Part shown: positions 4,145-17,367 of the stretch, piece after piece
Numbering within the stretch: the first letter of the stretch is position 1
Layout of the letters: the number at the start of each line of letters is the position of its first letter
Assembly (NCBI GenBank): GCA_036171255.1
Contig: JAVHQS010000105.1
Location: 1 to 35,546, forward strand
Origin: Gallionella sp.
GTDB taxonomy: Bacteria > Pseudomonadota > Gammaproteobacteria > Burkholderiales > Gallionellaceae
Length of the DNA stretch: 35,546 nt
Direction: 5' to 3'
Notes under the pieces: model-generated
Database searches by the model: none
Told to the model about the DNA's origin: nothing
Seen by the model: only the letters and a program-made list of their open reading frames with translations
Translations under genes and position numbers: made by a program

Positions 4145-5871
4145 ATTACGCGGCCAGCGCACAGTCAGACATCACGGCGAAACTGCCCGGATGGCGCGCC
4201 ACCGCGTTATTTGTGTCGCTATTGCTGGGCTTGTCCGGTTTGCTCGGACGCGGTGTGTATCTGCAAGGGATACACAACGATTTTTTGCAGGAAAAAGGCA
4301 ATGCGCGCTACAGCCGGGTGATCGAAGTCAGCGCGCATCGCGGCATGATCACTGACCGCAACGGCGAGCCGCTGGCCGTGAGCACGCCGGTCGAATCGGT
4401 GTGGGCCAGCCCGGCCGATGTCGAGATCAACAATCAGCAGGCGAAGCAATTGGCCCAGGTGCTGGGTATGCGGGTCGACGATATCAAAAGTCGCCTGTCC
4501 GATGGGTCTCGCGATTTCGTTTATCTCAAACGGCAACTGCCGCCGGATCAGTCAGAGAAAGTGGTGGAGCTGAATCTGCCTGGCATCTCCTTGCAGCGCG
4601 AATACCGTCGCTATTATCCGTCTGCTGAAGAGTCCGCGCAGACGCTGGGCTTTACCGGGCAGGACGACAACGGGCAAGAGGGGCTGGAGCTGGCTTTGCA
4701 GGAGCAGCTGGCCGGCAAGCCCGGTAGCCAGCGCGTGATCAAGGACAGGCGCGGCCATATCGTCGAAGACGCGGGCAGTCTGCACGCGCCGAAACCGGGC
4801 AGCGATATCGCGCTCAGCCTGGACGGCAAGGTGCAGCATCTGGCCTATCGTGAGTTGAAGGCGGCAGTCGAACAGCATCATGCCAAGGCCGGTGCGATCG
4901 TGGTGCTGGATTCGCGCAGTGGCGAGGTGCTGGCGCTGGCCAACTATCCCGGCTACAACCCAAACAATCGCGGAAATGCCAGCAGCAAAGCGATGCGCAA
5001 TCGTGCCGTGGCCGACCTGTTCGAGCCGGGTTCGACGATGAAGCCGTTCACCGTCGCGACCGCGATCGAGACCGGCAAAGTGCGCCCGGATACGGTGATC
5101 AACACCGAGCACGGCGTGTTCGCGGTCGGCAACAAACAGATCCACGATACCCATGCCGAGTCGGTGTTGACCGTGTCGCAGGTGATCCAGAAATCCAGCA
5201 ACGTGGGCGCAGCCAAAATGGCGTTGATGCTGGAATCGGAAACGCTGTGGCAAAGCCTGTCCGACAGCGGCTTCGGCGCGCATACCGGCAGCAACTTCCC
5301 GGGTGAAGCATCCGGGAAATTGCGTGCCGCAAAAACCTGGCGGCCCATCGAGCAGGCCACCATGGCTTACGGGCACGGCATTTCGGTGAACCTGTTGCAG
5401 TTGGCGCGCGCTTACACCATCTTCGCCAATGACGGCGAGTTGAAGCCGGTCTCGTTGCTCAGGCTGGAAGCGCCGGCGACCGGCAAGAAGGTATTCTCGG
5501 ACGGTACTGCGCGCGCGTTGCGCGACATGCTGGAGCTGGTGGTGCAGCCCGGCGGCACAGCGCCGCTGGCCCAGATCGCCGGTTATCGCGTGGCGGGCAA
5601 GACCGGTACGGCGCATAAGCTGGAGAACGGTCATTATAACAATCGCTATGTCGCTTCCTTCGTCGGGCTGGCTCCTGCCTCGGCACCGCGCGTGATCGTG
5701 GCGGTGATGATAGACGAGCCGAGCAATGGACAGTATTACGGCGGCCTGGTCGCTGCGCCGGTGTTCAGCCAGGTCACCGGCGCCGTGCTGCATTTGCTGA
5801 ACGTGCCGAACGATGCACCGCTGAACAACGTGATCGCGCCGCCGGCTGACATCGTGAAGGAGGAGGTATGA
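4141..5871 (+). CDS. ftsI: Peptidoglycan D,D-transpeptidase FtsI (PBP3)
   Basis: RGMITDRNG, EPGSTMKP (SxxK), KSSNVG (SxN), GKTGTA (KTG). Confidence 0.98.
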   Translation: MNYAASAQSDITAKLPGWRATALFVSLLLGLSGLLGRGVYLQGIHNDFLQEKGNARYSRVIEVSAHRGMITDRNGEPLAVSTPVESVWASPADVEINNQQAKQLAQVLGMRVDDIKSRLSDGSRDFVYLKRQLPPDQSEKVVELNLPGISLQREYRRYYPSAEESAQTLGFTGQDDNGQEGLELALQEQLAGKPGSQRVIKDRRGHIVEDAGSLHAPKPGSDIALSLDGKVQHLAYRELKAAVEQHHAKAGAIVVLDSRSGEVLALANYPGYNPNNRGNASSKAMRNRAVADLFEPGSTMKPFTVATAIETGKVRPDTVINTEHGVFAVGNKQIHDTHAESVLTVSQVIQKSSNVGAAKMALMLESETLWQSLSDSGFGAHTGSNFPGEASGKLRAAKTWRPIEQATMAYGHGISVNLLQLARAYTIFANDGELKPVSLLRLEAPATGKKVFSDGTARALRDMLELVVQPGGTAPLAQIAGYRVAGKTGTAHKLENGHYNNRYVASFVGLAPASAPRVIVAVMIDEPSNGQYYGGLVAAPVFSQVTGAVLHLLNVPNDAPLNNVIAPPADIVKEEV

Positions 5872-6056
5872 CAAAAACCTCCAATAACCTGCTGCGCGAT
5901 TTTCATTTAGATATGTGGCTTCAACATAACCTGAAGGTTAGTTTCCGCCGCAACACGCCGCTTTGCGGCGAGTTGTCTCACTCGTTGCGCTCCGTGCGCC
6001 TTGCTCTCGAGCCGCTCGCTGCGGTTCTTGGAGGTTTTCAACGTGTTTCCTATTAA
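5868..6056 (+). CDS. 62-aa relay mini-ORF spanning the ftsI-murE insert
   Basis: ATG overlaps the ftsI TGA with a strong SD (AAGGAGGAGG) upstream; TAA 6054-6056 lies just inside murE; no recognisable protein family. Confidence 0.35.
   Translation: MTKTSNNLLRDFHLDMWLQHNLKVSFRRNTPLCGELSHSLRSVRLALEPLAAVLGGFQRVSY
5874..6038. mobile_element. 165-bp MITE-like element between ftsI and murE
   Basis: Terminal inverted repeats AAAACCTCCAATAACC (5874-5889) / GGTTCTTGGAGGTTTT (6023-6038), 15/16 match; CA on both flanks; internal hairpins; related to the 27855-27977 element. Confidence 0.7.
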
Positions 6057-16265: not shown

Positions 16266-17221
16266 GTACCAACGAGATGAATGACACGCCACGTACGCCA
16301 CAAGCCACAGGCCCGTTCGGCAAAGTCGCGGTGCTGTTCGGCGGACGCTCAGCCGAGCGCGAGGTGTCGCTGAAGAGCGGCGCGGCGGTGCTGGCGGCAT
16401 TGCAGCGCAGCGGCGTAGACGCGCATGCGTTCGATCCGGCCACGCAGAACTTGCAAGCGCTGGTTGATGAGGGATTCGATCGCGCATTCATCGCGCTGCA
16501 CGGACGCTTCGGCGAAGACGGCACGGTGCAGGGTGCGCTGGAATTGCTGGGCATTCCTTACACCGGCAGCGGCGTGATGGCCTCGGCGCTGGGTATGGAT
16601 AAATGGCGCACCAAGCTGGTCTGGCAGGCGGCGAATTTGCCGATACCGAACTACGCGCTGCTCGATGAGCACAGCGATTGGGACGGTGTAGCACGACAGC
16701 TGGGCTTGCCGCTGTTCGTGAAGCCCGCCAACGAAGGCTCCAGCGTGGGCATCAGCAAGGTGAAAGCAGCCGGTGAATTGCGCGCGGCATATCGGGAAGC
16801 CGCCTTGCACGACAAGCTGGTGATCGCGGAAAGTTTCATCGGCGGCGGCGAATACACTGCGGCGATCCTCGGCGAGCAGGCCTTGCCGGTGATCAAGATC
16901 GAACCGGCCAACGAGTTCTACGACTACGAGGCGAAATACCTGCGCAACGATACGCGCTATCTGTGCCCGAGCGGGCTGAGCGCGGCGCAGGAAGCAGAGA
17001 TGCAGCGCCTGGCGCAACAGGCTTTCGCGTTGATCGGCGGGCAAGGCTGGGGACGCGTGGACTTCCTGATGAGCGAGAGCGGCCAGCCGTATCTGCTCGA
17101 GATCAATACCTCGCCGGGCATGACCGACCACAGCCTGGTGCCGATGGCGGCGCGGCAGGCGGGTATCGGCTTCGAACAACTGGTGCTGCGCGTACTGGAG
17201 TTGGCGGGGGTTAACAAATGA
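16262..17221 (+). CDS. ddlB: D-alanine--D-alanine ligase
   Basis: [59 protein letters not shown] 16262 overlaps the murB stop. Confidence 0.97.
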
Positions 17222-17367
17222 TTTTCACGTTCGCTTGGCTCCGCCCCCCTCGCTTCGCTCTCCCCGCTTGCGGGATAACCGGCGGCTTGGCCAGCGTCAT
17301 TTGCTGGCTTAGTCGAATGGCTAGCAGCTCCATCAGAGGATTGAGGAGAGGGAAATATGTGGGATAA
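17218..17367 (+). CDS. 49-aa relay mini-ORF between ddlB and ftsQ
   Basis: [52 protein letters not shown] overlaps the ddlB TGA; TAA is 11 nt into ftsQ (ATGTGGGATAA). Confidence 0.35.
17275..17323 (-). repeat. 49-bp dispersed hairpin repeat, copy 1
   Basis: Reverse complement TAGCCATTCGACTAAGCCAGCAAATGACGCTGGCCAAGCCGCCGGTTAT; 39/49 identical to 26538-26586. Confidence 0.85.

Follow-up and report, generated by a model that had tools for sequence, protein, structure and literature searches.

Mycobacterial interspersed repetitive units (MIRUs), reportedly treated by Supply et al. in 1997, are the repeats for which the relay design, a short open reading frame (ORF) running across a hairpin insert, has so far been described. 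In the available parts of two sources (PMC12548453, PMC3184786), MIRUs are short structured repeats at operon junctions with both empty and filled alleles; they form one family of ~40-100 bp with 40-50 copies per genome and a tetranucleotide direct repeat at the ends, and their ORF is coupled to the next gene at -4, which is proposed to minimise the effect on expression. Here we analysed the division and cell wall (dcw) operon of Gallionella sp. in a stretch of 35,546 nucleotides (contig JAVHQS010000105.1, assembly GCA_036171255.1; the whole stretch is referred to as the window), where four gene junctions carry hairpin inserts, each crossed by a relay ORF. In relatives, at three of these junctions, the openness of such frames lies far beyond chance and is tied to a start codon overlapping the upstream stop.

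As in what these sources describe for MIRUs, the relay ORFs overlap both adjacent operon genes and relatives have empty orthologous sites; the design is shared and the principle is therefore already known, and ribosome hand-over is likely to take place here. However, by size and family structure the inserts are not MIRUs. The same junctions have been reached by many unrelated families, with lengths of 40-424 nt, nesting and tandems; the window inserts are composite and 112-171 nt long, and only element Y (60 nt), nested in one of them, has MIRU-like copy numbers. Some inserts supply a new end for a gene or a recoded copy of the existing one, many match cassette arms of the nuclease or four-helix-bundle kind, and the association of open frames with a start codon was measured against controls without a start. 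In the literature searched, mostly outside subscription journals and supplements, we found no report of many families converging on one junction or of a start-codon control nor, in the parts of the sources available, of GxxExxY cassettes or recoded gene-end copies beside empty hairpins.

The operon extends from mraZ (from 2474) to ftsZ (to 20551). A sequence-only reading of the window had counted nine overlapping and four interrupted junctions between mraZ and ftsQ, and this was borne out: 9/13 are overlaps, and the other four hold inserts of 171 (ftsI/murE), 112 (ftsW/murG), 129 (murG/murC) and 135 nt (ddl/ftsQ). The coordinates and lengths of its four mini-ORFs also stood; each frame starts from an ATGA on the upstream stop and is stop-free (4/4), and the remaining two plus-strand frames contain stops in every insert.

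5868..6056, plus strand: relay ORF 1, 62 aa, from the ftsI stop to 14 nt inside murE
12584..12703, plus strand: relay ORF 2, 39 aa, from ATGA to ATGA at ftsW/murG
13758..13907, plus strand: relay ORF 3, 49 aa, from the murG stop to 17 nt inside murC
17218..17367, plus strand: relay ORF 4, 49 aa, beginning at the new ddl stop and finishing at the ancestral one, 11 nt inside ftsQ

By dinucleotide shuffling, the chance of an open frame in these inserts is 0.18, 0.24, 0.23 and 0.31, respectively, with a joint p of 0.003 for the four. All four frames end on or just inside the next start, as had been read from the sequence, but the ancestral overlap closes the insert only at ftsW/murG (-4) and ddl/ftsQ (-11); at ftsI/murE and murG/murC a purine-rich stretch precedes the next start. 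ATGA stands at both ends of the ftsW/murG and murG/murC inserts, and not at those of ftsI/murE, where murE starts with GTG at 6043 behind a GGAGG at 6030-6034, or of ddl/ftsQ. The stop/start junction assumed for ddl/ftsQ needs correction, in that its empty allele is a -11 overlap rather than ATGA, and both the new ddl end and the ATGA were brought by the insert. Similarly, the description of the inserts as largely different holds insofar as they belong to several families, but those at ftsI/murE and ftsW/murG share a hairpin, X, in opposite orientations. Relay ORF 1 is the weakest of the four, because the window has the sole relay-type allele among 96 scored ftsI/murE junctions, while the L056 homologue of relay ORF 3 ends in an exact -4 overlap. 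Public groundwater contigs (four runs of one study, possibly from the source sample) span the first three inserts with zero differences and, in the pieces listed, cover the fourth only from 17238. The family is taken to be Gallionellaceae on the grounds that window MurG is 78% identical to the MurG of a Sideroxyarcus record with the same insert type. A Pfam search of the four relay peptides gave no match, and Rfam found nothing in the window at gathering score and, at E up to 1, a single chance snoRNA match over two inserts. The relay peptides look like junk.

We compared the dcw operon of the window with those of 100 genomes, inferred to be Gallionellaceae and picked from murG matches, chiefly so as to have long contigs and many genera represented, giving 101 loci. 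Inserts were defined as gaps of at least 40 nt and scored at ftsW/murG, murG/murC and ddl/ftsQ, excluding six junctions with no recognisable start; relays were defined as frames open from ATGA/GTGA to -15 to +20 nt of the next start, through one ORF or up to three chained ORFs. In total 88 inserts, including the window's own three, stand in place of ancestral overlaps. At ftsW/murG 45/97 scored alleles are overlaps and 50/97 carry an insert, with corresponding numbers of 56/101 and 27/101 at murG/murC and 81/95 and 11/95 at ddl/ftsQ. ATGA or GTGA leads 77 of the 88 inserts, and 76 of these 77 form a relay where 25.8 are expected by chance; 52 of the 76 relays end in an exact -4 overlap. In contrast, the other two frames of the same inserts are open in 49/154 cases, and inserts without an overlapping start codon are open in 3/11 (3.3 expected). 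The single exception among the 77, L128, is read here as relaying through -8 overlaps. What had been proposed from the window alone is in part borne out.

The association holds when each family is represented by its first member only (17/17 relay, 6.8 expected; joint p 1e-6 from the largest p per family). Members of one family differ in length but keep the frame: single inserts made of X and a gene-end copy have seven distinct lengths, all of them 1 mod 3. Switching between empty and filled states is frequent, with at least 26, 23 and 10 changes on a 95-tip tree for ftsW/murG, murG/murC and ddl/ftsQ, respectively. At the other dcw junctions, 25/29 gaps led by ATGA/GTGA are relays (14) or in-frame fusions (11). 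Among eight homologous 112-nt ftsW/murG relays, the proportions of synonymous (pS) and non-synonymous (pN) differences are 0.64 and 0.36 in the spacer and 0.17 and 0.12 in the hairpin, which is conserved as DNA; there is therefore no peptide-level constraint on either part. Tandem arrays of 2-3 relay units, all with stop/start overlaps of their own, were observed at ftsW/murG of L055, L046, L113, L115, L124 and L128.

We consider it quite probable, on comparative grounds, that hairpin inserts of several unrelated families persist because their junk frame carries terminating ribosomes onward, selection keeping those inserts that are neutral to translation. Of the two options offered by the sequence-only reading, survival of non-polar inserts only is the better fit. 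Insertion would be promiscuous, and purifying selection would pass three translation-neutral outcomes, in which the insert forms a relay ORF, fuses the reading frames in frame, or abolishes the overlap so that the downstream gene initiates independently. An ATG followed by an early stop would be removed, as the stranding of ribosomes ahead of the hairpin is proposed to cut expression of murG, murC or ftsQ; such a start followed by an early stop is a nearly missing class at the scored junctions, as would be expected if downstream expression is under selection. Possible causes are Rho-dependent polarity and reinitiation, for both of which the available part of PMC12548453 gives background.

Several results weigh against this reading or limit it. 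Within the dcw operon, 4/29 ATGA/GTGA-led gaps at the other junctions are neither relay nor fusion. Across the window's genome assembly (G000, 74% complete), using home-made gene calls and junctions not sorted by ancestral state, the excess of open frames is not specific to the start codon: frames are open in 21/57 ATGA/GTGA cases (12.4 expected; the four window cases included), and similarly in 26/92 cases with another TGA (16.3 expected) and 42/200 with TAA/TAG (26.4 expected). The rule is therefore demonstrated at the scored junctions and not genome-wide. Nor is it universal. At mraY/murD, 26/34 inserts come after a stop, in most cases TAA or TAG, that no ATG/GTG overlaps, and at trpG/trpD, where 29/52 scored loci overlap, 0/9 inserts begin with ATG/GTG. 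As a replicate, trpE/trpG failed, since 37/55 loci have no upstream trpE and its empty alleles are not overlaps. Those mraY/murD inserts that lack the start codon tend to finish with a ribosome-binding site, and their anti-Shine-Dalgarno (anti-SD) pairing is stronger, with a median of -6.2 (n 26) versus -1.5 for empty alleles (n 39). However, pairing is weaker in the five murG/murC inserts of the no-start kind (-3.2) than in the empty alleles there (-7.2), and relay and no-start inserts over the three junctions do not differ (p 0.24); an SD substitute for the lost overlap is not general. Moreover, the shuffles ignore that cassette arms were coding, so that chance openness may be understated, and the families counted above are BLAST single-linkage clusters, one of which combines several types. 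Finally, one study reviewed in the available part of PMC12548453 saw reduced coupling at spacings of 14 and 17 nt inside, where two of the four window relays end.

An alternative, which we judge unlikely, is that a dedicated mobility machine targets stop/start overlaps with elements built to recreate the coupling, and that selection acting at the site contributes little. In line with this, some elements carry their own ATGA (at ddl/ftsQ, and in L131), the ATGA is kept in all 52 ftsW/murG gaps of at least 40 nt, and a unit of X plus a gene-end copy recurs at ftsW/murG in a Methylophilaceae record and in another proteobacterial record. Nevertheless, at least 17 sequence families relay, the same families occur within genes, read in frame, and also, with no relay, behind TAA/TAG stops, the frame is kept while lengths vary, and no enzyme gene is tied to X or Y in the loci and scans examined; the other option of the sequence-only reading, a single system that targets overlaps and rebuilds the coupling, is accordingly not supported. 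Somewhat less likely again is that the open frame was inherited from coding cassette arms and the ATGA from a target duplication, the relay being an unselected by-product. The left arm of the L131 GxxExxY cassette does encode the same peptide as the start of several murG/murC relays, and the genome-wide excess described above is not start-specific, as inheritance would have it; but inheritance would not set the length modulo 3 once a cassette has collapsed, a same-family member behind TAA (L129) is closed, and X-type inserts are open too, without known cargo. That the mini-ORFs are functional small proteins of cell wall synthesis or division is very unlikely, since the peptides at one junction are unrelated, 45/97 ftsW/murG alleles have none, and, although the last 11 codons of X-type relays are conserved as amino acids (pS 0.66, pN 0.14), this part merely copies the ftsW end, and elsewhere in the ORF amino-acid constraint is slight or absent.

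If selection for translation-neutral inserts is the explanation, the junctions amount to a natural replicated test of translational coupling, with dozens of independent inserts at one essential junction, and distinguish junctions that appear to need ribosome hand-over (ftsW/murG, murG/murC) from those that do not (mraY/murD, trpG/trpD). A class of short hypothetical operon ORFs would then be explained as junk relays rather than small proteins.

The inserts themselves are unrelated palindromic families, frequently nested, and about half of these families appear to be emptied cassettes of GxxExxY, DUF559 or four-helix-bundle genes. In BLAST searches (E < 0.001), 35/88 inserts and 10/20 families match the flanks of such genes, and many are therefore likely to be emptied cassettes; short repetitive arms may match by chance, although the matches sort by family. 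This links gene-less hairpins to poorly studied cassettes, whose filled forms can also be coupled at both ends. In the window, two inserts are of these types.

13781..13858 (13781-13805 and 13834-13858), no strand assigned: inverted arms, GxxExxY-type, likely emptied cassette
17222..17356, no strand assigned: DUF559-flank-type hairpin with nested element Y, the ddl/ftsQ insert

The murG/murC arms are 96% complementary, with a hairpin folding z of -7.2, and 26/29 bases of the arm match that adjoining the GxxExxY gene of L134. DUF559 flanks are matched by 10/11 ddl/ftsQ inserts; L039 and L078 carry Y-free alleles of 54 nt at this junction. Each clade of GxxExxY cassettes has its own inverted repeat arms and fixed operon junctions, the genes of which, recognised from their translations, we take to be the following.

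trpE/trpG: GxxExxY cassette in L131
rarA/serS: GxxExxY cassettes in L133, L138, L139, L141 and L143
sdhA/sdhB: GxxExxY cassettes in L137, L140, L142, L145 and L149
rnfC/rnfD: GxxExxY cassettes in L146 and L148

In L131 the GxxExxY gene begins in an ATGA overlap on trpE, where 17/17 empty alleles have TAA/TAG and a gap of 9-12 nt. A cargo-filled relay was found in G000 (contig C4, 18556-19080), where a DUF559 gene lies within hairpin arms inside an ABC transporter operon and overlaps the stop of the gene before it (TGATG) as well as the start of the gene after it (ATGA). The suggestion that the mini-ORFs are collapsed cassettes is thus supported for about half of the families, but no cargo-filled allele was found at the dcw junctions of the 101 loci, in which the largest gap, of 424 nt, consists of three empty units in tandem. 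No GxxExxY, four-helix-bundle or IS110 gene was found in G000, at its 74% completeness. The available part of PMC11893778 describes Ssn, GIY-YIG nucleases that cleave single strands site-specifically and have NTS/SRM hairpins, and the likeness lies in inverted repeats that enclose the gene of a small single-domain nuclease and are also spread over the genome as copies lacking the gene. The arms here differ in matching mainly GxxExxY, DUF559 and four-helix-bundle flanks; 11/88 inserts match GIY-YIG loci, eight of them with DUF559-type arms, and the sole GIY-YIG frame of G000 is a long one.

Two smaller elements lie within the window inserts.

5916..5954, plus strand: hairpin X, nested in a second genome-wide repeat (5876-5901, 5974-6040)
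12611..12672, minus strand: hairpin X at ftsW/murG, in the orientation opposite to the ftsI/murE copy
17275..17334, plus strand: element Y, 60 nt, with 52 paired copies in the assembled genome

The length of Y is divisible by 3 in 40/46 measured copies, and all 12 copies within called genes are antisense. On many contigs of G000, Y was seen to insert before AG within other hairpins and within itself, and an antisense copy precedes argJ in the window (26527-26586) with no ATGA stop ahead. No enzyme gene tied to X or Y was found in the flanks of DUF559, four-helix and GIY-YIG loci or in a viral scan; these flanks rarely hold X or Y, each of which adjoins a single GIY-YIG locus among those examined, and the viral scan gave three matches, one a true Y copy. 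REP/REPIN-RAYT elements, in which the repeat flanks a Y1 (RAYT) transposase gene, were also considered: G000, at 74% completeness, has two Y1_Tnp genes, whose flanks are by eye unlike the four inserts. A GTDB pattern scan, which was too loose, returned 120 stretches, four with an X-like hairpin, three of those at ftsW/murG. In G042 (L152/L163), a composite repeat that includes X is present twice, in inverted orientation, on either side of a low-GC frame of 345 codons; the gene between the inverted X pair was rejected as an autonomous partner, being unrelated. At L155, L161 and L165 (G000 contig C94), X lies at a T-run in an apparent partial duplicate of what by eye is a tRNA gene, with the intact copy adjacent. 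An X-like hairpin also interrupts a gene end on G000 contig C135 (7602-7665); the gene presumably encodes a protein resembling an integron integrase.

X is accompanied by copies of gene ends. At ftsW/murG it is followed by a synonymously recoded copy of the last 11 ftsW codons, and in other alleles X accompanies a copy of the murG start or the mraY end.

12553..12587, plus strand: ftsW 3' end, tail 1, a 35-nt direct repeat with 12669-12703, 80% identical
12669..12703, plus strand: recoded ftsW 3' end duplicate, tail 2, which closes the relay ORF

The two tails share 9/10 last residues and 23/30 bases. Over 27 tail pairs, chosen by DNA motif and including two spurious matches, pS is 0.70 and pN 0.14, so that most agree only as protein; an earlier comparison (pS 0.72, pN 0.10) was biased in demanding 4/10 identical residues. 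In the eight homologous relays described above, the tail is likewise turned over synonymously (pS 0.66, pN 0.14). The copies often share lineage-specific residues, and both often match true ftsW tails of other genomes at 29-30/30 bases; they are near-identical in L221, L124 and L128, the repeats of family X measuring 35-57 nt. Synonymous mismatch in the last 12 codons versus the gene body, over 100 closest locus pairs that are not independent, is 0.47 vs 0.31 for ftsW, 0.44 vs 0.30 for mraY and 0.33 vs 0.26 for ftsA, with an excess of at most 0.04 in the remaining 11 genes. The nearest empty alleles resemble tail 1 more closely in 15 cases, against 11 for tail 2, and therefore no direction of gene-end replacement is demonstrated: L032 and L037 fit an imported tail 1, and L041 fits the reverse. 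In the sister genomes L066 and L072, the same two ftsW tail codings stand in swapped order around the ftsW/murG insert.

Family X would thus enter with a gene-end duplication of 36-57 nt. Repeated gain of the unit and its loss through crossover within the tail probably exchange one synonymous version of the gene end for another, which suggests that such cycling of repeats contributes to fast synonymous change in these positions. Long target duplication insertion, in which a target of >30 bp, sometimes touching a gene end, is duplicated around restriction-modification cargo (PMC2853133, available part), resembles family X only, in its 35-57-nt repeats, which in fresh inserts are near-identical and measure 36-57 nt. 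In contrast to those cargo-bearing inserts with near-identical repeats, X is an empty hairpin and most tail pairs are alike only as protein. A wider proposal, which we regard as possible but not probable, is that tiny selfish cassettes form a guild whose common niche is the coupled junctions of essential operons; they would express a promoter-less nuclease by termination-reinitiation, spread to empty alleles by homing and eventually collapse, leaving relay ORFs, while X, cycling in and out of the ftsW, mraY and murG ends with its gene-end copy, would drive rapid synonymous recoding of essential gene termini. If true, X cycling would be a mutational force not described in the literature found. 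For the relay inserts themselves, the comparative evidence is unusually strong.

Apart from the four junction inserts, related repeats are read in frame within mur genes three times in the window.

7575..7598, plus strand: in-frame insertion of 8 codons in murF, from the alignment
10354..10380, plus strand: in-frame heptamer-repeat insertion of 9 codons in murD, from the alignment
15822..15891 (bounds approximate), plus strand: heptamer-armed hairpin in frame inside murB, read from the sequence and missed by the alignment filter

In relatives, 72 internal in-frame insertions were flagged, some of which are alignment or fusion artefacts (e.g. L129 murE). Hairpin insertions recur in frame at a few positions of murC, murE, murD, murF and murG, for example near MurC residue 350. 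Rickettsia palindromic elements (RPEs) are intragenic fusions with a conserved peptide in housekeeping genes (PMC10969869), and the mur insertions resemble them as palindromic repeats tolerated in frame. However, the available part of that source describes no relay across gene overlaps, and the element peptide here is not conserved (spacer pN 0.36 vs pS 0.64; hairpin pN close to pS).

Two further features lie downstream in the window. A heptamer-armed hairpin stands 3' of the ftsZ TAA (20552-20640), with no ATGA stop ahead, and a small hydrophobic ORF after lpxC (21631-21831) is convergent with dciA (21828-22250, PF05258).

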